Positions 7,063 to 36,133 of a stretch of 40,871 bases of DNA are shown piece after piece (position 1 is the first letter of the stretch; the number at the start of each line of letters is the position of its first letter). Origin of the DNA: a virus (Duplodnaviria; Caudoviricetes); the IMG/VR virus record IMGVR_UViG_3300010048_000021, positions 1-40,871 of that record. The stretch is one strand, 5' to 3'. The notes under the pieces are model-generated. The model saw only the letters and a program-made list of their open reading frames with translations. It was not told the DNA's origin and searched no databases. The translations under genes and the position numbers were made by a program.

Positions 7063-7572
7063 GTGGATTGGCCAGCGGCTAAGTTAGATTACGTGAACAA
7101 TGCGGCCATGACCTATAGCGACATCGCCGCCAAATACGGCGCAACGGATGAAGCCGTGAGACAGCGCTCGGTGCGCGAGAACTGGCCGGATGAGCGGAGT
7201 AAGCGAAGTCACGCTCTGTCACTGGCAGTCACGCAGAAATCCATCCTGAACTCTGTCGATGAGCTCGCCAAGTACAACGAGCAGGACATCGTTATCGCGA
7301 AGAACCTGCGAACGGTCGCAGGTCGCATTATCCAGAGCCGGCACGATACGCTCGACCCGAACGAGCTGCGCTCGCTCTCAACTGCCATTGTGAACGCGCA
7401 GCGCGTGGCACGCCTGGCGCTGGGCGCCTCCACCGAAAACAGCAACGTGCGCGAGGAGGGTGTGTTTGACTTCTCTGACTTCTCTGACCCCGAGCTCGAA
7501 CAATTGGTTAGCCGAGCACTTCGTTCGCGAGGCGCAGCAAGAACTGCTCCGCCGGAAACAAAGCCGAATTGA
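7063..7572 (+). CDS. terS: Terminase small subunit
   Basis: DW...Y...TYSDIAAKYG HTH, ENW motif, C-terminal DFSDPELEQL; immediately before TerL. Confidence 0.7.
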   Translation: MDWPAAKLDYVNNAAMTYSDIAAKYGATDEAVRQRSVRENWPDERSKRSHALSLAVTQKSILNSVDELAKYNEQDIVIAKNLRTVAGRIIQSRHDTLDPNELRSLSTAIVNAQRVARLALGASTENSNVREEGVFDFSDFSDPELEQLVSRALRSRGAARTAPPETKPN

Positions 7573-8227
7573 GGTGTACTATCCCGATGACGGCCCGCTG
7601 CGCCGTGAGCTCTACCCGAAGCATCTCGAGTTCTTCGCATTGGGCAAGCAATACCGCGAGCGTATGATGATGGCCGGCAACCGCACAGGCAAAACCACGG
7701 TCGGCTGCTTCGAGTGCGTGCTGCATGCCACCGGAAGGTATAGCAAATATGCGCCCTGGTGGGAAGGCAAGCGCTTCGCGCATCCGGTCAGTTGCATCGT
7801 GGCCGGCGACACCAACCTCACCACGCGCGACATTCTGCAGTCGAAGCTGTTCGGCAAGCTTGAGCGCCAGCCAGGCGACAATTTGCGGGAAGCCATCGGT
7901 CTCGGCACCGGCATGATGCCGCGCGATGCCATCCTGCAGGCTACGCCGCGGCGCGGAGCGGAGAACGCTTATGAGGAAGTGACGGTGCGCCACATATCCG
8001 GCGGCGTTTCGGTGATCAAGCTGCGCTCGTTCGAGCAAGGCGCCGAAGCCTTCCAGGGCACTGAAGAGGATTTGATCTGGCTCGACGAGAATTTCCCGCA
8101 GTCGGTCTATTCGGAATCGATCACACGGTTGATGACAACTGAAGGGCACCTGCTCATGACGTTCACGCCGATCAATGGCGTGACGCCGATTATTCGCGAA
8201 TTCATGGACAAGGCGTACCGGGCATGA
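7466..8227 (+). CDS. terL: Terminase large subunit, ATPase part
   Basis: Walker A AGNRTGKT, Walker B LIWLDE, motif III TFTP. SD GAGGAGG 6 nt before a TTG. Confidence 0.9.
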   Translation: MTSLTSLTPSSNNWLAEHFVREAQQELLRRKQSRIEVYYPDDGPLRRELYPKHLEFFALGKQYRERMMMAGNRTGKTTVGCFECVLHATGRYSKYAPWWEGKRFAHPVSCIVAGDTNLTTRDILQSKLFGKLERQPGDNLREAIGLGTGMMPRDAILQATPRRGAENAYEEVTVRHISGGVSVIKLRSFEQGAEAFQGTEEDLIWLDENFPQSVYSESITRLMTTEGHLLMTFTPINGVTPIIREFMDKAYRA

Positions 8228-8952
8228 CCACCACGCGAGCTTTGGTAACTGCAACGTGGAGTGACGTGCCGCATCTGTCCGAGCAGATGAAGGCCGAACT
8301 CACGGCCAGCTATCTGCCGCATGAACTGGAAGCGCGCACGCTCGGCGTTCCGTCGCTCGGCCGCGGCGCGGTGTATCCGCTGGCGCAATCGAGTTACACC
8401 TGCGACCCGTTCCCGATTCCGGCGCATTTTCCGCGCGCATATGGCCTCGATGTCGGTTGGAACTGGACCGCATGCACGTGGTGGTGCTGGGACCGCGAGA
8501 ACGATCAGGACTGGATCTACCGGGAGTATCTGCGCGAGCAGGCGCCGCCGGATATTCACGTGATGGCGATTAAGAATGCGGGCGAGTGGATACCGGGCTG
8601 TGTCGATCCCAGCGCCAAGGCCAGATCTCAGGTCGACGGTCGCAACTTACTGGCGGAATACGACGCGCTCGGCTTGAAGATGGCCTTGGCTGATAACAGT
8701 GTAGACGCCGGCGTGCTGCGCGTCTATCAGCGGCTGGCCGCCGGCAAACTGAAGATCTTCCGCACCTGCACGAAACTCTTAGAGGATCTGCGCTTCTATC
8801 ATCGGGATGATTCGGGCCGCATTGTGAAAGAGGGCGATCACTTGCCGGACGCGCTGCGCTATGTGGCGATGACCGGGCCGTCGATCGCGAAGGTCAAGAT
8901 GCTGCCGAAGCTGAACGGGCACGAGGCGCGCCCGCAGTGGGCGTGGGGCTAA
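8224..8952 (+). CDS. terL: Terminase large subunit, nuclease part
   Basis: TWSDVPHL, GLDVGWN, VDPSA, DHLPDALRY (RNase H-fold acidic motifs). ATGA overlap with the ATPase ORF. Confidence 0.9.
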   Translation: MTTTRALVTATWSDVPHLSEQMKAELTASYLPHELEARTLGVPSLGRGAVYPLAQSSYTCDPFPIPAHFPRAYGLDVGWNWTACTWWCWDRENDQDWIYREYLREQAPPDIHVMAIKNAGEWIPGCVDPSAKARSQVDGRNLLAEYDALGLKMALADNSVDAGVLRVYQRLAAGKLKIFRTCTKLLEDLRFYHRDDSGRIVKEGDHLPDALRYVAMTGPSIAKVKMLPKLNGHEARPQWAWG

Positions 8953-9200: not shown

Positions 9201-9337
9201 TGCCGTTACTGCATTTAGTGTTGCTGGCGTTCGCGTTCGTCTTGTTCGTGCTGGCCGCAGTCGGCGTGACGCATGCGCGCGTGAACCTGATGGCGCTCGG
9301 CCTCGCGTTTCTGACGCTGGCGCTTTGGCTGCACTGA
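9200..9337 (+). CDS. 45-aa two-TM membrane protein (holin candidate), absent from the ORF track
   Basis: MPLLHLVLLAFAFVLFVLAAVGVTHARVNLMALGLAFLTLALWLH; TGATG overlaps at both ends. Confidence 0.65.
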   Translation: MPLLHLVLLAFAFVLFVLAAVGVTHARVNLMALGLAFLTLALWLH

Positions 9338-10086
9338 TGACGGAAGTCTGGAGTTGCGGTGGCGGCACGCAGTCAGGTGCGATTGCGGTGCTCATCGCGC
9401 AAGGGAAGCTGCCGAAACCGGATCTGTGCTTCATGACGGACACAGGCAGAGAAAAAGCCTCGACCTGGCCGTTTGTCCAAGGATTCATCCGTCCGAATTT
9501 GCAGCGCGTCGGCCTAGATCTGACGATTATCAAGGCGACTGACTTCGCGAGCACGGACATCTTTTTTGACAACACGGTTCTGTTGCCGGGATTTACTACG
9601 CAAAGCGGTAGCGTCGGCAAACTTTCCCCCTTCTGTTCTGGGAAATGGAAGCGCGACGTTGGCGAGCGTTACATGCGCTCTATCGGAATCGAGAAGGCTC
9701 GCAACTGGATCGGCATTTCGCTCGACGAGGCGCGCCGGATACGCAACCAACACCGCCAATGGCTGCAACTCTGGTATCCGCTCATCTTCGAGGTGCCGAT
9801 GCGGCGCCACCAGTGCGTGGAACTGATTCGCGCGACCGGCTGGACGGACCACATTCCCCACTCTGCTTGCTACATGTGCCCGAACCTGGGCGATGCCGAG
9901 TGGATCGACATGCAGCGCAACTGGCCGGAAGATTTTCAGCGCGCCTGCGAGCTGGAAGCGGATGTACGCGAGAAGGATGCGCACTTCTACCTGCATCCGA
10001 GTTGCACGCCGCTAGCGCAAGTGGATTTCTATCAGCAGCACACGATGTTTGCCGAGCGCGGCTGCACGGGCGGATGCTTTACGTGA
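9337..10086 (+). CDS. PAPS reductase-like / PP-loop protein
   Basis: SCGGGTQS, DTGRE, CSGKWK, WIGISLDE, YPL, SACYMCP. Confidence 0.8.
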   Translation: MTEVWSCGGGTQSGAIAVLIAQGKLPKPDLCFMTDTGREKASTWPFVQGFIRPNLQRVGLDLTIIKATDFASTDIFFDNTVLLPGFTTQSGSVGKLSPFCSGKWKRDVGERYMRSIGIEKARNWIGISLDEARRIRNQHRQWLQLWYPLIFEVPMRRHQCVELIRATGWTDHIPHSACYMCPNLGDAEWIDMQRNWPEDFQRACELEADVREKDAHFYLHPSCTPLAQVDFYQQHTMFAERGCTGGCFT

Positions 10087-10087
10087 T

Positions 10088-10242
10088 GTGGCTGCATTGA
10101 TCTTCACCGGCGTCGTGATCTTTCTGTTCTGCGTGTGGATGCTCTACTGCCTCTCGAAGCTGTGATGCTGATCTGGATTCTCACGGGCGCGGTAGTGGCG
10201 GTGATCCTGGCCTGGTGGCTGTGGATGGTGGTGCGGTGGTGA
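10088..10242 (+). CDS. Two coupled 25-aa hydrophobic micropeptides (10088-10165, 10165-10242)
   Basis: MAALIFTGVVIFLFCVWMLYCLSKL and MLIWILTGAVVAVILAWWLWMVVRW, joined by TGATG. Confidence 0.45.
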
Positions 10243-10268
10243 AGCCCGCAAAAGAAGAAGGAAGCCCG

Positions 10269-10514
10269 CTATTTTTCCAGAAATCCCGCTACGGAGAGGT
10301 CCTCATCAATTTGCGGCCAATGAATTCCGATGCCACCGCCGATGAACTCATAGTCCTGCAGTTCTTCGGGAGTAGCGCCTGCCAGGCGCGGGAACCAGGC
10401 GAGCGGAACGGAAATTCGGCGGCCGTCCGCCAAATCGACCACGAGGGTTTCGGCGTCTTCTGGAAATTGAACGCCTATCGCCACTGGTTCCGGCTTAACC
10501 GGCAAAGTACTCAT
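10269..10514 (-). CDS. DUF2442-family protein (putative antitoxin partner)
   Basis: LADGRRISVPLAWFPRL...GIHWPQIDEDLS. Confidence 0.88.
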   Translation of the reverse strand: MSTLPVKPEPVAIGVQFPEDAETLVVDLADGRRISVPLAWFPRLAGATPEELQDYEFIGGGIGIHWPQIDEDLSVAGFLEK

Positions 10515-10731
10515 TCCACCTCTTTAAAAACGTCGGCTCGTTCTCGACAACCAGCTTGCGCAGGTTGTTTTGCGCGGCTGCGTTATAGCCTTTGCTCTGC
10601 GCAACGCGGACCGGGCGCAGCCAAAACTTCGCATATCCGCCGTACCCTTCCACGTGAATGTGTGGCGCTTCCTGTCCCTCATTGCTGAAGAAAAAGAACC
10701 GATATCCATTGATGCGTAGAACGGTGGGCAA
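10495..10731 (-). CDS. DUF4160-family protein (putative toxin partner)
   Basis: PTVLRINGYRFFFFSNEGQEAPHIHV...AKFWL...WNEYF; TTG start. Confidence 0.88.
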   Translation of the reverse strand: MPTVLRINGYRFFFFSNEGQEAPHIHVEGYGGYAKFWLRPVRVAQSKGYNAAAQNNLRKLVVENEPTFLKRWNEYFAG

Positions 10732-10867
10732 GGACTTACTTTTTTTACAGCACGGCACCGGCCAAAAGGAGAGCCCGCTCCCGGTGCGGTTCAGTGATAG
10801 CAAAGCGAGGCAGTGTCTTCTACACTGAACGCTTTCATGATAGATCAGTCGGTTTCAGAGAAATGAC

Positions 10868-11095
10868 ATGCTGCGCCGGCTGTTCCTGTTCGCTGCGCCG
10901 GCCGGATGGTTCGGATGGCGTTGGCACCTGCTAGCAAAGCACGAATGCGCGCGCGGCGGAACATTGTTGTTTTTCCTGCAAGGCGAACCGTGGAAACTGA
11001 CGGAGCGCGAGCGGGAGTTGATCGACGAGATGGCCGAGAAGATGCGGGCGCTCGAGCCGCAGAGCCTGCAGAATCGATTGCCGAAGAATCTCTAG
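10868..11095 (+). CDS. Hypothetical protein
   Basis: ORF coupled to the next small gene. Confidence 0.45.
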   Translation: MLRRLFLFAAPAGWFGWRWHLLAKHECARGGTLLFFLQGEPWKLTERERELIDEMAEKMRALEPQSLQNRLPKNL

Positions 11096-11184
11096 TGTAC
11101 GGAGACGACGCACTGTATATCGTGCTCGGCGTATTGGGCGGCCTGCTGGTGCTGCTACTGGCCGTGCTGTTGGGGATGAAGTGA
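11095..11184 (+). CDS. 29-aa single-TM micropeptide
   Basis: MYGDDALYIVLGVLGGLLVLLLAVLLGMK; coupled at both ends. Confidence 0.4.
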   Translation: MYGDDALYIVLGVLGGLLVLLLAVLLGMK

Positions 11185-12163
11185 CGAATTACGCACTGCT
11201 GTTTCACCTGGACGGCAAACTGCCGAACCTCGCAATGATGCGTCTCTCCGCGCATCTGAAGGCGCAGGGAACCGACGTTGTCTTCCGCCGCGGCGGTGAT
11301 CCGGAGCGCACGTTTTGGGAACTGGGCAACGAACCGTCAGCCGTCTATGCCTCAGCCATCTTCCAAAGCACACGGCCTGTAGCCGAGCGCTTGGCGTGCG
11401 TCTATCCGCAGGCGGTGATCGGCGGAACGGGTTACGATCTCGCGCTCACACTGGAAAGTCTTGGAGTTCAGAGTAAGACACTGGATTACTCGCTCTATCC
11501 AGACTTTCGGTTCTCACACAGCGAGGCTGCCGCCTGAAATGCTCGTTTTGTGTCGTGCCTCGAAAAGAGGGTAAGGTGCGTCAGGAAATGACTATCGCGG
11601 AGATCTGGCGCGGGGAGCCGTATCCGCGCAGTGTACTCCTGCTTGACAACGACTTCTTCGGGCAGCCTGCCTGGCGCGAGCGCATTTGCGAACTGATAGA
11701 CGGAAACTTCAAGGTTTCCTTCAACCAGGGCATCAACGCGCGATGCCTGACCGAAGAAGCCGCAGAAGCAATTGCCGCCGTCGATTATCGCGATGACTCG
11801 ATGGAGACGAAGCGCATTTACACAGCTTGGGACAATCGCGCGGATGAAGAGCGGTTGTTCGCGGGCCTGAAGCGTCTTGTCAAGTACGGCGTGAAACCGG
11901 ATCACATTATGGTCTACATGCTGGTCGGCTATTGGCCCGGTGAAACGGATGAGGACCGGCTGTACCGCCAGCAGCGCTTGCGTGATTTTGGTTGCCGTCC
12001 GTATCCGATGCCGTATGTGCGGACGCCGGAACTGGTCGGCTTTCAGCGCTGGGTGATCGGCGCTTATGACAAGCGCATTGATTGGGATGAGTTTAAGCAG
12101 GCGTCGTGGGAGCCGCGCAATCTGCCGGACTCGGCGCAATTGTCGCTCATGGCGACCGCATGA
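11181..12163 (+). pseudogene. Radical SAM protein, frameshifted near 11515
   Basis: DGKLPNLAMM...IGGTG...DYSLYP in one frame; TQRGCRLKCSFCVVPRKEG (CxxxCxxC), LLDNDF, FNQG continue in the -1 frame. Confidence 0.8.
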
Positions 12164-16359: not shown

Positions 16360-17275
16360 TACACCCACCATCACCAACTTCGCGGAGTTCGAGGCGGCGG
16401 GCGGCCGGCTACCGCCGGAAGGCCAAGCGAAAACGGTAGAGCCCGCTACACCTGCCGAAGAAGCGCCTGCCGAGCCTGCGGAAGCGGAGCCTACCGAGCC
16501 TACAGAAGAGAAGCCGCCCGAGAAGAAAGCGAAGGCGAAGCCCAAGCTTACGCTCTCGGAAGAGCACGCGCGGCTCTTGAAGGAGGTGACGGAGCTCCGG
16601 CGCGAGCGGCGGGAGTTGCAACAACCGCCTGCGCACACTCCGCAACCACCGGCCGCCACGCCTGCTGCGGCTGACGGCGCAGCACCTATTCGTCCGAAGC
16701 TTTCGACCTTTCCCGGCACGCTCGAGGAGTACGAAGCCGAAGTCGAGAAGTACGAAACGAAGCAGCGCGCCTGGATCGAGCAGCAGTGGGAGCGCAAGCA
16801 GCAGGAGCAGCAATCGAAAGCCGAACAGCAGCGTGTCGCGAAGGAGTACGGCCAGAAGCTGCAGGAGCATCTCAAAGCGCACCCGGACTATGACCAGGAG
16901 ATCGGGCAGACGCCGCTCTCGCCGCTCATGGTCGACCTCGTACTGCAGGAAGGTCCGGCGCTCGGCCAGGCGCTCATCGACAACAAAGAGGAAGCGCAGC
17001 GTATTGCGAACCTGGCACCCGGCTACCAGATTCTCGAGATGGGGAAACTCATCGGACGCCTGAACGGCCACGGTAAAGCGCAGCAGGCCGAGCCGGAAGC
17101 AGAACCGGAGCCGGAACCGGAGCGCGTGAAGGTGCCGGCGCAACTGCGCGCGACCGGCGGATCGACGCCCTACTCGGCCTCGAAGCCCGGCTTCGGCGCG
17201 CGGAATTTCGCGGAGTATGAGAAGCTCGCCCAGAAGTACGAGCAGAAGCGACCAGGATTCAGCAGCAGGAAGTAA
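16346..17275 (+). CDS. Scaffolding protein
   Basis: Acidic/Pro-rich N-terminus, coiled-coil, HPDY, C-terminal FAEYEK; between portal and coat. Confidence 0.8.
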   Translation: MAESSTPTITNFAEFEAAGGRLPPEGQAKTVEPATPAEEAPAEPAEAEPTEPTEEKPPEKKAKAKPKLTLSEEHARLLKEVTELRRERRELQQPPAHTPQPPAATPAAADGAAPIRPKLSTFPGTLEEYEAEVEKYETKQRAWIEQQWERKQQEQQSKAEQQRVAKEYGQKLQEHLKAHPDYDQEIGQTPLSPLMVDLVLQEGPALGQALIDNKEEAQRIANLAPGYQILEMGKLIGRLNGHGKAQQAEPEAEPEPEPERVKVPAQLRATGGSTPYSASKPGFGARNFAEYEKLAQKYEQKRPGFSSRK

Positions 17276-17285
17276 GATTGCAGGG

Positions 17286-17374
17286 TAAAATGGAAGCAGA
17301 GCCACAAGTGTTGGACGCACTTATGGCCCCTGACCAAAGCAACCGCAGGAGGGTTGCATATGGCTACTCCCATT
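17286..17374 (+). promoter_or_regulatory. Nuclease-gene leader, copy 1 (-10 box, hairpin, RBS-occluding hairpin)
   Basis: TAAAAT; gccacaagtg/cacttatggc; gcaacc-gcaggag-ggttgc; ATG at 17360. 17318-17374 is identical to the reverse complement of 22123-22179. Confidence 0.85.
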
Positions 17375-17884
17375 ATCAGTCGCGGGCAGGCGATTCAGGC
17401 AGGACTGAAGCGCTACTTTACGGGCAAGCCCTGCAAGCATGGACATATTGCAGAGCGCCTCGTCAACGGTGGCTGCACAGATTGTTTCCGCGAAGCGAAT
17501 CGACGGGCCGACACGAAAGCCTACTACAAGCAGTGGGCCAAGGTAAACGCCGAAGCGCAAAAGTTATATCACGCAAATTATCGCAGCGAGAATGCTGAAA
17601 CCATTAAGCGACAGATTCGCGAATGGAAGAAAGCGCATCCTGAGCACATCACCCGACAGACAGAGAGCCGTCGAAAGCGCCTCATTAAAGATGCGGGAAG
17701 ACCGAAGCCCGATGCCTGCGAAGTCTGCGAGAAGGTTACGCCGAAGCTCTGTTATGACCATTGCCACGTCTCGGAGGAATTTCGAGGATGGCTCTGCCAG
17801 CAGTGCAATTCGGCACTCGGCATGGTGCAGGATTCACCAGAGATCTTGCGCCGCCTTGCCGCATATCTGGAACGTAAGCTATAG
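17360..17884 (+). CDS. Free-standing endonuclease VII-type HNH nuclease 1
   Basis: N-terminal RYFTGKPCKHGHIAER...CTDC; C-terminal CEVC...DHCH...FRGWLCQQCNSALG. Confidence 0.88.
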   Translation: MATPIISRGQAIQAGLKRYFTGKPCKHGHIAERLVNGGCTDCFREANRRADTKAYYKQWAKVNAEAQKLYHANYRSENAETIKRQIREWKKAHPEHITRQTESRRKRLIKDAGRPKPDACEVCEKVTPKLCYDHCHVSEEFRGWLCQQCNSALGMVQDSPEILRRLAAYLERKL

Positions 17885-18073
17885 TTGTTTCTTCAGTTTT
17901 GGCGACACTGTCAAATCGCCTCCATCCGTCAATTGTCCGCTCTCGGAAAGCGGTTCGACGGCAGTGATGACTGCCTGAACCCATTCACCCCTTAAACGTC
18001 ACAAACGGAGACATCTCAATGCTTAATCATCAAGGAGAACACCGCGGGCTGACGTCTTCTGAGGAGCGGAACA

Positions 18074-19348
18074 ATGCCTAACACATTCGTTAACACTAGT
18101 CCCGTCCTATGGAAGACGTTGGCCCGTTGGTGAACGCTCCCCTTCGGCTTAGTCTGAGGGGGAGACACCAACTGGAAAAATAATTTAAAATTCGCCCGCA
18201 ACGTCGATCACTCGTACAGTGAAGAGTTCGGGCGTATCGTCGGCTCGCACAATAAAGCCGGGCAGACCATTCAGGTGCCCAAGCCGCAACGCTTCACGGT
18301 AGCCGCGCAACAGGCCGCCAGTTTTCAGGGAATTACGAACCTGACGACGCCGCTCACTATGAGCATTCAGGCGAACGTAGCGTACCAACTGAGCTCGGTC
18401 GAGCGCAGCTTGAATGCGGACCATATGTACGAACGCTACGGCAAGCCCGCGGCGGACGCGCTGAGTAACTATGTAGACTACTCGGCGTTTCTGTTCGCGA
18501 CCCAGACCAGCCCGAACTTTGTCGGGACGCCCGGCGTGGCGCCGACCGACAACAGTATGTATCTGAATGCCGGCGTAGCGATGGACAACTTCGATTGCCC
18601 CATGAACACGGCGGATCGCATGGTGATTGTCTCGCCGCAGCAAATGGCGAAGGCCGTCTTGCTGGACCAGACGCTCTTTCACGCGGGCCAGGAGATCGAG
18701 CAGCAGTACCGCACCGGGAGTGTCGGTGAGGCGCATGGTCTCCAGTGGTTTAAATCGCAGAACACCCCCACGACCGTGGCTCCCACCTATGCCGGCACGC
18801 CGGTCGTGTCAGGCGCAGGCCAGTCCGGCTCAACGCTGACCATCAGCGGTTTTACTTCCGGCAGTCTGCCGGTCGGCACACGCTTCACGATCGGCAGTGG
18901 CGGCACGGCGGTCAACTCCGTGAACGCGCAGTCGCGCCAGAGTATCGGCGTGCTGCAGTCGTTCGTCGTGACGCAGACCACCGCACTCACCGCTACGACC
19001 AATCTGCCGATTTACCCGGCCATGACCTCGACCGGGCAATATCAAAATATTTCGCAGGCACCGCCCGCCGGCGCGGCCATCAATATCTGGGTCGCAAGCG
19101 GCGGCACCAATACCATCACGACCGGCTTGGCATTTCATGAGAAATCGTTTGCGGTCGTCTACGGCCAGCTCGACGTGCCCACGCAGGGCGTGCTCGAAGC
19201 CTACGGCGACACTGATCCGGAGACCGGATGCTTCATGAGGTACATGAGTTATCTCGACGGTGATAACGATCAATGGAAGGTGAGGTGGGATATTCTTTTT
19301 GGAATGGGCGCCTTATATCCAGAGTGGTCCTGTGTTGTGGCAAGCTGA
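18074..19348 (+). CDS. P22-like major capsid protein, interrupted by a 45-nt coding gap (predicted 409 aa if the gap is skipped)
   Basis: SD GAGGAG plus ATG 18074 gives MPNTFVNTSPVLWKTLARW-stop. The same frame resumes KNNLKFARNVDHSYSEEF...GQTIQVPKPQRF and ends RWDILFGMGALYPEW, a P22-coat-like pattern. Confidence 0.88.
18128..18175 (+). other. Putative translational bypass (hop) element
   Basis: TGG-TGA...TGG matched codons 45 nt apart; 7-bp plus 11-bp stem-loop; GGAG 8 nt before the second TGG. Confidence 0.7.
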
Positions 19349-19427: not shown

Positions 19428-19507
19428 TATAATAGGTTCAGGGCAAAGAGGTGTAACAGACCTCCTTGCCCTATACCAAGGCAACCGATGGAGGGTTGCA
19501 CATGGCT
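19428..19507 (+). promoter_or_regulatory. Nuclease-gene leader, copy 2 (diverged sequence, same structure)
   Basis: TATAAT; agggcaa-a-gaggt/acctc-c-ttgccct; ACCAAG; gcaacc-gatggag-ggttgc; ATG at 19502. Confidence 0.8.
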
Positions 19508-20140
19508 AAACCTATTCCACCTCAAGCCGCGCTCGATTTTCTGGGCGCTCTCTCGAAAGAAGAAGCAATTGCCGCCGGAAAGAAACGTTACCGTTCTGGC
19601 GAGCCTTGCAAGTATGGGCACGTAAGTGAACGCTGGGTATCCGATGACGCTTGCGTCGAATGCCACCTGCTGCATCGCAAGGAGCGCTACAAGCAAGACG
19701 CAGAGAACTTTGCGGCCAATTCCCGTAAGTGGAGAAAGACGGAGGAGGGCAAGGCCTACAGTCTTGCTTATAACCGCAAGTGGGCGGCAGACAATCCCAA
19801 AAGGATCGCCGTTAATCGGGAACGGGCCAAGGAACGGCACAAGCGCCGAATGCAGGAAGATCCGGTTTATGCGGCAAAGTACAGAGCGGCCAACCTTATC
19901 AAAAACACGCGAGCAAAGGAACGCCGCGATTTAAAGCGTGCCGGAGGGCCACCATCAGATCGTTGCGAAATATGCGGGGCGACCGCCGACGAAATCTGCT
20001 TCGATCACGATCACGCGACCGGCAAGTTTCGCGGCTGGTTGTGCCATACCTGCAATCGTGTATTGGGTTTAATCGGTGATTCACGAAAACGGCTCCGTGC
20101 GATGGATGAATTTCTAGAGCGCCACGGAGTGGCAATCTAA
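19502..20140 (+). CDS. Free-standing endonuclease VII-type HNH nuclease 2
   Basis: RYRSGEPCKYGHVSER...CVEC; CEICG...FDHDHATGKFRGWLCHTCNRVLG. Confidence 0.9.
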   Translation: MAKPIPPQAALDFLGALSKEEAIAAGKKRYRSGEPCKYGHVSERWVSDDACVECHLLHRKERYKQDAENFAANSRKWRKTEEGKAYSLAYNRKWAADNPKRIAVNRERAKERHKRRMQEDPVYAAKYRAANLIKNTRAKERRDLKRAGGPPSDRCEICGATADEICFDHDHATGKFRGWLCHTCNRVLGLIGDSRKRLRAMDEFLERHGVAI

Positions 20141-26564: not shown

Positions 26565-27553
26565 GCGAAGTGAATTTGCTCGGTCCGAATCTGATTCTGA
26601 GCGACTCGACACCGGCCGCACCGGGCGGATCGACGCTCGTCACCTGGCAGGGTAACGGGCAGAAAATCTCCGGCTATGTAGCCACCGGCACAGGCGGCAC
26701 GGTTACCTCCGTCGCGCTCACGATGCCTGCGGAGTTCAGTGTGGCGGGCTCGCCAGTGACAAGTGCCGGCACGCTCGCGGTCACGAAAGCGAATGAATCC
26801 GCGAACACCGTGTGGGCGGGTCCGGCTTCTGGCAGCGCTGCAGTACCGGCGTTTCGGGCGCTTACCTATCAGGATCTGCCGCCGGCTTCGCCGATCTCCT
26901 ATACGACCAGCGGCACCTATACGCTTTCGATGCTGCATTCGACCGTGAATGCCGATGCGACCGCAGGCTCGATCACGCTGAACCTGCCCAACCCGCACAG
27001 CACGGGCGACCAGTTTCTGATCAGCCGCGGCGACGTCACGACTGCGAATACAGTCACCGTGGCGGGCAACGGCTACAACATTTATTACCGCGCCGGCGGG
27101 ACGGCCACGACCGAAGTGCTGTACGGCGGCGAGGCGATTCAGCTCTATGCGATCGGCGGCCCCAGCTCGCTTGATTGGGTCATTCTGCGCCGTATGCCTT
27201 CGGCCTGGCTTCCCTGGACACCCACCTTGACCGGCAGCGGCAGTCTGACGATCTCGAGTCCTACGTTCTCGCCGGCTGAATATCAGGTATTCGGGGACAA
27301 CGTGACCTTTCGGCTGATTGCCTCGTTCACGGCGGCCGGCACCGGCGCAGGCCTGACCGCGACACTGCCCACGACCATCTTCGGTTCGCAGTACTTTTCC
27401 TTCAACGGCATGGCGAATGCGACTGGTGTCACAACCGAATTTCTCGCCGGGCTGGCCGTTTCGCCCAACATGACGATGTACCTGCGCGGGAACGCGATGT
27501 ACCCGGCCGGCACGGTCTCGATCTATGCCGGAGGCTGGTATCGGCGGCGATGA
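26561..27553 (+). CDS. Tail fibre protein
   Basis: DSTPAAP adaptor, GTVTSVAL...VWAGPASG...PAFRAL, DATAGSITLNLP, C-terminal WTPT domain. Confidence 0.75.
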   Translation: MSEVNLLGPNLILSDSTPAAPGGSTLVTWQGNGQKISGYVATGTGGTVTSVALTMPAEFSVAGSPVTSAGTLAVTKANESANTVWAGPASGSAAVPAFRALTYQDLPPASPISYTTSGTYTLSMLHSTVNADATAGSITLNLPNPHSTGDQFLISRGDVTTANTVTVAGNGYNIYYRAGGTATTEVLYGGEAIQLYAIGGPSSLDWVILRRMPSAWLPWTPTLTGSGSLTISSPTFSPAEYQVFGDNVTFRLIASFTAAGTGAGLTATLPTTIFGSQYFSFNGMANATGVTTEFLAGLAVSPNMTMYLRGNAMYPAGTVSIYAGGWYRRR

Positions 27554-27975
27554 TCCGGCAGGCCACAGCAGAGGACGTGCCGCGCCTGGTCGAGATGGGC
27601 CGGCGCTTCCGCTCGGAGACCGGCTATGCGAAGGTCTTAGCGGAGAACCCGGCGAAGATGGCAGAACTCGCGACGCAACTGGCTGCGAGCGGCGGGCTGC
27701 TGGTGAGTGAGCGCGAAGGGGAACTGGTCGGCATGCTGGGTTACGTGGTGTATCCGCACTTCATCTCCGGCGAATCGACGGCCGGTGAAGTGTTTTGGTG
27801 GGTGGAACCGGAGCACCGCGGCGAAGGTCTCAAGTTGCTGAAAGAAGCGGAGCGCCGCGCGAAAGCGGTGGGCGCGGAAAAAATGCAGATGATCGCACCG
27901 ACTGACCGGGTAGCCACGCTCTATCTGCGGCTCGGCTACGAGTTTGTCGAAGCCTCCTATCAGCGGGCGCTATGA
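27550..27975 (+). CDS. GNAT acetyltransferase
   Basis: MIRQAT.EDVP, WWVEPEHRG, LY.RLGY. Confidence 0.88.
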   Translation: MIRQATAEDVPRLVEMGRRFRSETGYAKVLAENPAKMAELATQLAASGGLLVSEREGELVGMLGYVVYPHFISGESTAGEVFWWVEPEHRGEGLKLLKEAERRAKAVGAEKMQMIAPTDRVATLYLRLGYEFVEASYQRAL

Positions 27976-28580
27976 ACATTCCCGGTCTCTGCGTCGAGAA
28001 CTTCGCGCCCGATGCGCTTCACGTGCGCGAGGCGGTGATCGCAGGACAATTCTCGACTGAGCAGGGGCCGGACGGAGGAACCTATACCGGCATCTCGCAG
28101 TATCCGGTGCCGCAGTGGTACGAGCGGATCGGAGAAGTGCTGGGCAGAAAAATCACGCCGCGGCTCTCCTGCTTCCGGCTGAACCTCAAGGGCGAGCTGC
28201 CGCATAGCTGGGTACACAGCGATGACATCTGCGCGAAATTCGCCAGCGTGCTCTATCTGAATCTGCCGGACCAGTGCATCGGCGGCACGGCCTTCTGGAA
28301 GCACCGGGCTCTCGGGATGAGCTACCTGTTATCGCGCGAAGAACTCGCTGCGCACGGCATGGACGCGGATGCCTTTTACCGGCTGATGAACCGCGAATGG
28401 AAAGATGCGAACGCCTGGGAGCAGGTCGGTCTCATGGGAATGCAGTTCAACCGCTTCCTCACGTATCCGACGCAGTTCTTCCATTCGCGCTGGCCGTGGG
28501 AAGGCTTCGGCTCTTCACCGCAGGACGGGCGATTGATCTGGGCCTGCTTCTATGACATCGAAGGGAGCAACGGAATATGA
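27972..28580 (+). CDS. 2OG-Fe(II) oxygenase-like protein (DUF6445-like)
   Basis: WVHSD, SVLYLN, GGTAFW, FNR...FHSR, R. Confidence 0.8.
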   Translation: MNIPGLCVENFAPDALHVREAVIAGQFSTEQGPDGGTYTGISQYPVPQWYERIGEVLGRKITPRLSCFRLNLKGELPHSWVHSDDICAKFASVLYLNLPDQCIGGTAFWKHRALGMSYLLSREELAAHGMDADAFYRLMNREWKDANAWEQVGLMGMQFNRFLTYPTQFFHSRWPWEGFGSSPQDGRLIWACFYDIEGSNGI

Positions 28581-34561: not shown

Positions 34562-35029
34562 ATTTCCACTGTCAACTTTAACGACACGACGCCCGCTGCG
34601 CCTGCAGGGGTAGTGAACCTCAAATGGCAGAGCGATGCATCCGGCAACATCAGTGCCTACGATCCAGTGGGGAGCTGGACGACCTGGACGCCCACCGTGA
34701 CCGGTGGTGGCTCGATGACGGTCAGTTCGCCGGTGTTCCAGCTCGCGCAATATCTGCGCGCCGGCCCGATTGTCTACATCTCGATGGAGTGGACCGCTAC
34801 GCTCGGCGGCACGGCGAGCAACAATGTCCAGTTGACCTTGCCCGTGGTGGTAGTGGGAAACCGTACCAACGGCGTTTCGATCAACGGCGTGAGCGGCACC
34901 GCGCTGCAGGCCGGTGTAGCGCTGTTCGGCAATCCGAGCGCCGGCATCATGAGCGTGTACCCCAGCACAACGAACTATACGCTCGGGGCCACGCAGTGGT
35001 TCATTACCGGCTGTTACCGCTGCGCCTAG
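34562..35029 (+). CDS. Stand-alone mini tail-tip/receptor-binding protein 2 (apparent ATT start)
   Basis: AAGGAGG SD, then ATT TCC ACT GTC AAC TTT AAC GAC ACG ACG CCC in frame with the 34613 ORF. Confidence 0.7.
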   Translation: MSTVNFNDTTPAAPAGVVNLKWQSDASGNISAYDPVGSWTTWTPTVTGGGSMTVSSPVFQLAQYLRAGPIVYISMEWTATLGGTASNNVQLTLPVVVVGNRTNGVSINGVSGTALQAGVALFGNPSAGIMSVYPSTTNYTLGATQWFITGCYRCA

Positions 35030-35775
35030 TAAAGACTGTTCCACGATGCGTCGATCTCGTCGTAACTGCGCCTGCGTGCGGCCTGCGTGTCGTAACCGAA
35101 GGTGTGGAACGCCGGCTGGTGGCGCGCTTCGATGGCTTGCGCAATGATCCGGTCGATCAGTTGCGTCCAGAGTCCCGGCTGGCCGCGCCAGAAGTGACGG
35201 TTCGGCGCCGTCGTGCGGGATTGCTCCAGCGTATGCGTGGCAAGAGCCTGCGCGATCGCCGCCTGATCCGGAGCGATGCCGTGGTCTTCGAGCAGGCGTA
35301 TCAGCCGCGGCGCCGGATCAGCGACCAGGTCTTCATAGGAAAGGCGATAGGTGTCGCGGCGCGTCCATTCGAGCGACAGGTTGAGCAGCGTTTCTGCGCG
35401 CATCGAGAAGCTGTACCCGACGAAGTCCGCGCTGCGCGGGCCTCTGCTGAGCAGTCGCGTTTCGTCACCCCATTCGCCGTTCAGCCAGTTCGCGGTCTGC
35501 GGTTCGAAATTCGAAAAGTGCAGGATCGAGACGAGCACGTCCAGCGGGTGCCGGTGCAGCACAAGCGGCGTGACCTGGTGGCGCTCGAGCAGGTTGAGCA
35601 GCTCCGGCGTGGGATGCCAGTGGATCTGGCCGATGAAGCTGGGCGGCAGCGATTCCCAATCGACATCGGACGGCCGATGAACCGCGAACTCGTGGCAGCC
35701 GAGCGTCGTCGCCAGCAGCCGCCGCAGATAGGTGTTGCCCGAGCGCGGCGTCGAGACGAGCAGGAAGCGGCTCAT
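35026..35775 (-). CDS. Sulfotransferase-family protein
   Basis: STPRSGNTYL (5'-PAPS loop), RHPLDVLVS, YEDL, FWRGQPG.W. Confidence 0.88.
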   Translation of the reverse strand: MSRFLLVSTPRSGNTYLRRLLATTLGCHEFAVHRPSDVDWESLPPSFIGQIHWHPTPELLNLLERHQVTPLVLHRHPLDVLVSILHFSNFEPQTANWLNGEWGDETRLLSRGPRSADFVGYSFSMRAETLLNLSLEWTRRDTYRLSYEDLVADPAPRLIRLLEDHGIAPDQAAIAQALATHTLEQSRTTAPNRHFWRGQPGLWTQLIDRIIAQAIEARHQPAFHTFGYDTQAARRRSYDEIDASWNSLY

Positions 35776-35806
35776 GGCTTCTTGTTTTCCAGATTCGTAA
35801 TGCGGC

Positions 35807-36133
35807 TCAAGGGATCTCCTCAATGCGAATGATAGGGGCGTACGATTCCAAACGATCACCGGCAAACTTGTCAAATTTGTATGCGTTCCCGTTTGGCACC
35901 AGCAGTACCCAGCCATCAGCATCACGGCGCACCCGCAGACAGTTTGCTGCCCATGCTCTGGCCCGCAGGTCATCGTAAGCATGTCCGTTTAGCCAAAGCC
36001 ACGGCCTGCGGTCTTTGTCCAGTTCAACAAGAGCCTCGCTGATGAACGCTGTTTCGCCGACAGGGAGGTCGCGTAGTTTGAGTGCAGGGTTCTTGATGAA
36101 TTTTTCGGCCAATCTCGGTTGCTCGTCAGGCAT
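35807..36133 (-). CDS. Hypothetical protein
   Basis: 108-aa ORF in the minus-strand operon. Confidence 0.55.
   Translation of the reverse strand: MPDEQPRLAEKFIKNPALKLRDLPVGETAFISEALVELDKDRRPWLWLNGHAYDDLRARAWAANCLRVRRDADGWVLLVPNGNAYKFDKFAGDRLESYAPIIRIEEIP

Follow-up and report, generated by a model that had tools for sequence, protein, structure and literature searches.

Long-range programmed ribosomal bypassing has been studied in depth in a single gene and has so far been described mainly for that T4 enzyme gene. As set out in the cited account, bypassing in T4 gene 60 relies on a take-off codon and a landing codon that match, a stop codon or a rare one, a stem at take-off, a short Shine-Dalgarno (SD) motif (mini-SD) and a 5' stem, and its 50-nt gap travels with the homing nuclease MobA, whose nicking it blocks (10.1101/2022.08.31.505936). 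Pairing of the exiting mRNA was proposed by Wills et al. to drive the ribosome forward, and these mRNA-exit events are, in their description, arguably the main unsolved problem (10.1101/2024.12.09.627546). Shorter skips are described for the terminase gene of Streptomyces phage Hau3 (a 10-nt UUA bypass; PMC10732093) and for the byps of Magnusiomyces mitochondria (27-55 nt; 10.1101/2022.08.31.505936), and a tape-measure gene beside an HNH insertion has, in the source cited, been the subject of speculation only (PMC4351075). A different arrangement is reported for F-CphI, a free-standing nuclease with an Endo VII motif lying beside the intron-containing psbA gene of cyanophage S-PM2 and taking part in collaborative homing; the core of its family comprises CX2-4C, a DHDH-like motif whose second Asp is variable, an Arg and CX2C-Asn (PMC6083498).

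The locus described here has features of both arrangements at the major capsid gene of a temperate phage. An earlier note, made from the DNA letters of this phage, had proposed that ribosomes skip 45 nt near the start of the coat gene and knew of no such case in a capsid gene; a search of the open-access literature found none either. The upstream nuclease and the leader stem described below are new parts that go beyond that observation.

The coat gene and its gap

The stretch of DNA analysed (40,871 bases, hereafter the window) carries direct terminal repeats and represents the complete genome of the phage. It encodes P22-like portal, scaffold and coat genes together with an integrase and RecT (42 ORFs scanned against Pfam, 46 against PHROGs), and a single tblastn match showed that it has one coat gene. 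All coordinates given in the earlier note proved correct: an ATG at 18074 opens 19 codons ending in TGG (18128-30), TGA follows at 18131-33, and a second in-frame TGA lies in the gap. The matched landing TGG is likewise present 45 nt further on (18173-75), and whichever frame is read, neither the gap nor the 100 nt after it holds another TGG; the same stretch lacks a premature TGG in the three carriers of the gap that were checked. A structure search by sequence gave a match confined to the C-terminal part of a solved coat. The features of the locus are collected in Table 1.

Table 1. Features of the coat-gene locus (window coordinates)
Feature	Position	Strand	Evidence or remark
Gene for a free-standing homing endonuclease of Endo VII type (F-CphI-like), located between the scaffold and coat genes	17354..17884	+	PF02945, E 3.5e-16
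uORF of 20 codons, stop overlapping the coat start	18019..18081	+	SD GGAG 18007-10; frame and overlap shared by the window, L001 and L010
5' arm of leader stem	18039..18060	+	pairs with 18111-18133 (coat codons 13-19 and first gap bases)
Inner extension of leader stem, covering the coat SD	18062-72/18099-108	+	fold
Coat ORF1, codons 1-19, the last being the take-off codon TGG	18074..18130	+	ATG 18074; SD GAGGAG 18061-66
45-nt coding gap: stop TGA, hairpin, mini-SD, return arm, landing codon	18131..18175	+	sequence, fold
Gap hairpin	18137-64	+	fold
Arm pairing back on the take-off codon	18166-72	+	fold
Coat ORF2, P22-type major capsid protein, from resume codon K20 to stop	18176..19348	+	PF11651 from profile position 22, E 4e-34

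The gap is GC-rich. The two stems proposed for it (18126-32 with 18166-72, and 18137-47 with 18154-64) fold at -31.2 kcal/mol with z -4.6, none of 200 shuffles being as good, and the take-off codon lies in the 5' side of this stem-loop, for which z is -4.6 in the window and -3.2 in the carrier L001. The predicted GGAG was found at 18161-64, ending 8 nt before the landing codon; this spacing is also 8 nt in the carrier L010 and 7 nt in L001, with an A/C-rich spacer, and the landing site is preceded by a G-rich, SD-like GGGGGAG. A tetraloop stem in the A site right after the stop was not found, the C-UUCG-G at 18142-47 having a single closing pair and lying inside the 11-bp stem. Nor was a nascent-peptide signal recognized: the 19-residue chain is without a KKYK-type motif and is the same as in gap-less relatives. 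When a generic gap detector (matched codon, stop, hairpin, long frame devoid of a start) was run on both strands of the window, only the coat site was returned.

A split gene and accessory regions were also seen in the window. Its large terminase consists of two genes, an ATPase half (7460-8227) and a nuclease half (8224-8952). The break falls at the same place in all eight closest relatives (L159-L166), and in seven of them the nuclease half lies about 10-690 nt further on, often beyond other DNA. Recoding of this split terminase was rejected, terL being fractured family-wide. Accessory genes at 9325-12163, 27550-28580 and 35026-35982 encode PAPS-reductase-like, GNAT acetyltransferase, DUF6445 and sulfotransferase proteins, along with two radical-SAM-like pieces (11181-11537 and 11555-12163). 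Scans of genome contigs with the coat alignment and with the portal returned no relative.

Recurrence of the gap among relatives

The insert recurs in other phages: three of 14 related viral loci hold it, L009 and L010 with the same 45 nt and L001 with a 44-nt variant, while 11 are contiguous. Including the window there are thus four carriers, three of which are independent, and the TGG/TGG pair is kept in all of them although the gap length differs. The codon following take-off is TGA in the window, L009 and L010 but TGT in L001. TGT is the rarest sense codon of the window ORFs (0.8 per 1000); in L001 itself it is scarce (2 of 1271 codons) though not the rarest. The frame of L001 is also found in P0122, a second record of this type that possibly comes from the same sample. 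Between the window and L010 the gap is identical at 45/45 nt, against 77% identity for coat DNA and 68% for nuclease DNA.

Alignment of the joined protein to its homologues, which the earlier note had suggested as a check, is gapless across W19/K20 in 11 of the 14 loci, and residues 14-25 are free of indels in all but two of 103 aligned coats (101 of 103). Among 42 close coat proteins, 28 are contiguous at the gap site; the other 14 are N-terminally short or read through the gap frame. As regards misassembly, the insert occurs with 0 differences and at a depth of about 17 in a Logan contig of run X1, which may be the source sample of the window and is then not independent of it. The expectation of similar inserts with covarying stems was borne out in part: inserts and conserved structure were found, but the gap hairpin is invariant in both stem and loop among carriers and shows no covariation. 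Such constraint at the level of sequence is unexplained by bypassing and counts against it.

Wider searches added no carrier. A covariance model run over 94 sources gave strong matches, full or truncated, to the four carriers only, and weak matches to coat starts. Scanning of 31 of 64 metagenome parts with a 15-nt motif yielded at least 120 loci and, among the matches listed, all were due to chance save the window's own record; L017, L169 and L172 were among the chance matches rejected. The gap detector returned only unconvincing matches (L193-198, L202) from 85 further loci (79 from the nuclease search plus L153-L158), and window positions 18020-18180 compared with phage records gave nothing beyond a 40-nt chance match. 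Several N-terminally short coat calls (P0014, P0015, P0125, P0126, P0127, P0129), some on contigs of up to 39 kb, are possible further carriers.

Selection on both coat halves

Both halves of the coat gene are, judging from substitution patterns, under purifying selection. In ORF1, 17-18 of the 19 residues are kept among carriers, each pair having 4-7 differences that are silent and 1-2 that alter an amino acid. Ahead of any start codon, at codons 20-52, the window and L001 differ by 13 silent and 0 amino-acid changes; the other carrier pairs give 14 silent against 4 amino-acid differences and 6 against 4. The GTG start chosen by the ORF caller is codon 53 and is missing from L001 and L010, the first in-frame ATG common to carriers being codon 81. 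Silent codons are identical between the window and L010 at 134 of 244 positions, so that about half differ. The break point lies inside a predicted helix (residues 6-21) of the intact homologue P0124. Loci L006, L007 and L013 are near-copies of L005 and were left out of the counts of codon differences, uORFs and leader stems and of the trees.

TGA is an ordinary stop in this phage, terminating 6 of the 15 large window ORFs, coat and portal among them. Taken together with the 44-nt variant and the translation of both halves, this means that the gap must be skipped exactly, either on the ribosome or in the RNA.

A predicted carrier-specific leader stem

The coat gene is preceded by a short uORF (Table 1). 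Indels in it among the window, L001 and L010 are multiples of three, its length ranging from 20 to 24 codons, and it likely acts as a translational-coupling leader. A -1-frame uORF overlapping the coat start is also present in six of the eight empty (gap-less) types, which suggests that an older coupling leader was probably co-opted. Separately, six empty loci (L004, L005, L008, L011, L012, L014) have a small conserved hairpin around a GGAG SD, located 30-70 nt before the coat start, ahead of the uORF; carriers keep this GGAG SD without the hairpin, and it may be a regulatory site.

The uORF region is predicted to pair with the end of ORF1 in a 22-bp stem. This duplex is found in all three carriers with upstream DNA (-44 to -48 kcal/mol, z -6.1 to -7.8, 0/300 shuffles each; L009 comes without upstream DNA and was left out of the leader tests) and stands at background in all eight empty types (z -1.8 to +1.4). 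Across carriers 64 of 66 cells (98%) are paired and two broken, compared with 43-60% paired in sliding controls. Sixteen of the 22 pairs are unvarying, two changed on one side and four on both sides, and three of these last four coincide with third, silent codon positions, those of K14, T15 and R18. With three sequences, and 31/500 in the shuffle control for covariation, this covariation is suggestive only. Conserved G-U pairs indicate that the structure forms in RNA of the + (coding) strand.

Some bases are claimed by both the leader stem and the take-off stem, which compete for them; the two weigh about equally in the window and L010, and in L001 the leader dominates. An alternative duplex between the leader and the loop plus 3' arm of the gap hairpin may also form in L001 and L010 (4/500 and 7/500 shuffles) and gave 71/500 in the window. 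Similarity of the loop and 3' arm of that hairpin (18148-18164 in the window) to the end of ORF1 (18111-18133), and of its 5' arm to the leader, hints that it arose as a small copy of the leader stem. A downstream stem considered as a slippage barrier (z -2.8 in the window) is not carrier-specific, being also present in empty loci and weak in L010.

An Endo VII-type nuclease gene co-occurs with the gap

A nuclease gene lies just upstream of the coat gene in all three carriers with upstream DNA (window, L001, L010) and in none of 10 empty loci, L013 being left out of this count as it has 288 nt of upstream DNA. The motif CxxC...DHCH...R..CxxCN is recognizable and agrees with the catalytic pattern of F-CphI, and CxxC, DHCH, R and CQQCN occur in all three carrier nucleases, which are 54-63% identical to each other. 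In a search with a profile built from them, no clusters but their own three exceeded 46% identity with near-full coverage, a result that is partly circular and concerns word-sharing candidates only. Counting against a specific nuclease-gap association, other Endo VII genes occur downstream of coat genes regardless of the gap, one lies about 6 kb upstream of the coat in the empty genome L175, and related nucleases are found upstream of gap-less distant coat genes (L192, L239).

The L010 coat is 94.6% identical to the intact, gap-less P0124 but 84-87% identical to those of the other carriers, the window standing at 84%. The best trees need two changes; a single carrier clade is a borderline rejection with DNA (p-AU 0.049), and protein does not reject it (0.28). 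Coat identities and trees favour, short of proof, lateral spread of the gap. The gap, the leader stem and the neighbouring nuclease probably move as a single mobile homing cassette.

Additional genes were noted around the locus. A second Endo VII-type nuclease, about 40% identical to the upstream one, sits right after the coat gene (window 19466-20140) and is also present in L001, L003 and L012, independent of the gap. In L010, a small gene pair on the minus strand (1440-2040) is inserted between scaffold and nuclease, and we take it to resemble a bacterial toxin-antitoxin or DUF2442/BrnA-type module.

Alternative explanations

Read-through, downstream restart, a pseudogene and misassembly each fail when tested, and the main rival to bypassing is removal of the gap from the RNA, as a micro-intron cut and religated by a host or phage enzyme or by a ribozyme formed with the leader. 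We consider this unlikely. Long conserved structures at both ends of the gap, the invariant hairpin with its loop and the freedom from multiples of three seen in L001 would all suit an intron; yet no Rfam family reached its gathering score in 17250-18300, and folds inspected for exon-exon pairing or a bulge-helix-bulge showed neither. Group I introns have an exon-terminal U and an intron-terminal G. The gap could be cut in four equivalent registers, but in no case do both of these ends, or group II ends, result, and the scanned ORFs (42 against Pfam, 46 against PHROGs) include no RNA ligase or splicing nuclease. Whole-codon repeats, a stop or scarce codon and a mini-SD are moreover signals of translation. 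An unusual restart at or after the gap from the G-rich SD, with the 19-residue peptide dispensable or added in trans, is improbable: the strong GGGGGAG ahead of the landing site and an ATG there in L001 speak for it, but this ATG has CTG as its counterpart in the window and L010 and belongs to the -1 frame, no common in-frame start precedes codon 81, and ORF1 is conserved at the protein level with the break inside a predicted helix.

More remote still is a dead coat gene in defective or satellite carriers, the leader stem then being a mere repressor or RNase III site. Two in-frame stops and a 22-bp stem over the SD that could silence or cleave the message speak for it, but the complete genome holds just one coat gene, three lineages have many more silent than amino-acid changes on either side of the gap, and the gap is more conserved than its flanks. 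We attach equally little weight to excision of the gap from DNA, or its skipping by RNA polymerase, during lytic growth. A short direct repeat with a hairpin in a temperate phage equipped with integrase and RecT might invite either process; the repeat is just 3 nt, however, the conserved G-U pairs point to RNA, and the joint was absent from one DNA run, a weak argument as contigs drop rare variants. Least credible is read-through of TGA by an alternative code or suppressor, adding 15 residues. Although the window gap is 45 nt and in frame, the 44-nt gap of L001, whose frame P0122 keeps, excludes it unless both records share a 1-nt error, and it is at odds with both the ordinary use of TGA as a stop and the rarity of indels among the aligned coats.

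A proposed model of bypassing in a mobile cassette

We therefore favour programmed ribosomal bypassing in a mobile nuclease-plus-gap cassette, to which we assign a probability of roughly 0.7; the hop itself is predicted from the sequence features. In the proposed mechanism, a ribosome ending the uORF would open the leader stem and restart at the coat AUG. After 19 codons it would pause with peptidyl-tRNA-Trp on UGG and a stop (the rare UGU in L001) in the A site. The leader could then re-pair with the exiting codons 13-19 and zip through the take-off codon, pushing the ribosome forward, and the gap hairpin would refold behind it. The mini-SD would slow the ribosome, allowing the tRNA to re-pair at the sole other UGG and decoding to resume at K20. 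At the DNA level, the gap would interrupt the nuclease target near the conserved start of the coat gene and so protect the carrier, and the nuclease would cut gap-less alleles in mixed infections.

A sliding model gives results consistent with drive by exit pairing, short of proof. For the window, a 5' footprint of 12 nt gives a modelled folding energy of -55 at take-off, which drops to -87 by the landing codon and is lowest at +51. The curve has the same shape in all three carriers, a steep fall over the first 18-27 nt, as the leader would zip, then a flat part and a second fall where the gap hairpin would refold. The minimum lies 6 nt past the landing codon with this footprint and 12-18 nt past it with footprints of 18 or 24 nt, which speaks against the model.

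A fuller version of this model would be an independently evolved bypass machine that has co-opted a uORF leader as an antisense zipper, does without the A-site hairpin and nascent-peptide signal of T4, admits one ribosome at a time, works well enough to sustain production of a major capsid protein and is spread along with a homing nuclease of Endo VII type. We put its chances at about even. Because the gap sits in the gene of the most abundant virion protein, bypassing there would have to be highly efficient or its selfish cost tolerated, and virion proteomics could readily detect the junction. As a natural non-homologous system whose exit pairing is long, carrier-specific and tracked by compensatory changes, the cassette would make the exit-pairing question testable. 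A further implication is that gaps of this kind may go unnoticed behind metagenomic coat calls that are short at the N-terminus.

Comparison with known systems

Membership in the MobA/gene 60 element (Topo2L, HNH MobA, CTE/NTE) was rejected, the present locus comprising a P22 coat gene and a PF02945 nuclease with no recognizable shared sequence. As far as the cited descriptions of T4 go, the differences are numerous. The interrupted gene is a podovirus-type capsid gene instead of a myovirus topoisomerase; the matched codon is Trp and not the Gly or Asp of T4 homologues; and the nuclease is of Endo VII type and lies outside a coat gene that is not split. The gap is GC-rich and lacks the A-site tetraloop stem, and its nascent chain has 19 residues without KKYK, compared with 46 in T4. 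The T4 mini-SD sits 5-7 nt before landing with an AU-rich spacer, whereas here the distance is 7-8 nt and the spacer A/C-rich, not AU-rich. The 5' stem is 22 bp long, is formed by a leader in an untranslated frame and extends through the take-off codon; that of T4 is described as short, 9 nt upstream and poorly conserved. Bypassing in T4 is about 50% efficient, which would be costly for the most abundant virion protein and counts against bypassing here, as do the absence of the A-site tetraloop stem, the nascent chain of just 19 residues, the mini-SD spacer and the standing of UGU in L001 as a scarce but not the rarest codon.

Among other systems, F-CphI offers the closest parallel for the nuclease: a free-standing Endo VII-motif enzyme beside a conserved gene whose insert would block self-cleavage. 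In the F-CphI account, however, protection comes from a self-splicing group I intron, whereas the present insert has 45 nt and no ribozyme core. Hau3 and the byps resemble the present case in being short non-coding blocks within essential genes, skipped between matched codons. They differ, in the sources cited, by relying on an unavailable tRNA, by belonging to other genes and hosts, and by having neither a nuclease cassette nor a leader stem described.

The likeness to T4 gene 60 is broader, on the published description of that gene. Both have matched take-off and landing codons with no premature landing codon, a stop after take-off with a scarce codon in a variant, a take-off codon held in a stem, a mini-SD before landing and a 5' stem behind the ribosome. 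As with gene 60 and MobA, a homing nuclease is adjacent and presence among close relatives is patchy. Since the A-site tetraloop stem and nascent-peptide signal of T4 are missing, the coat-gene cassette would work like gene 60 without being a member of the MobA family.
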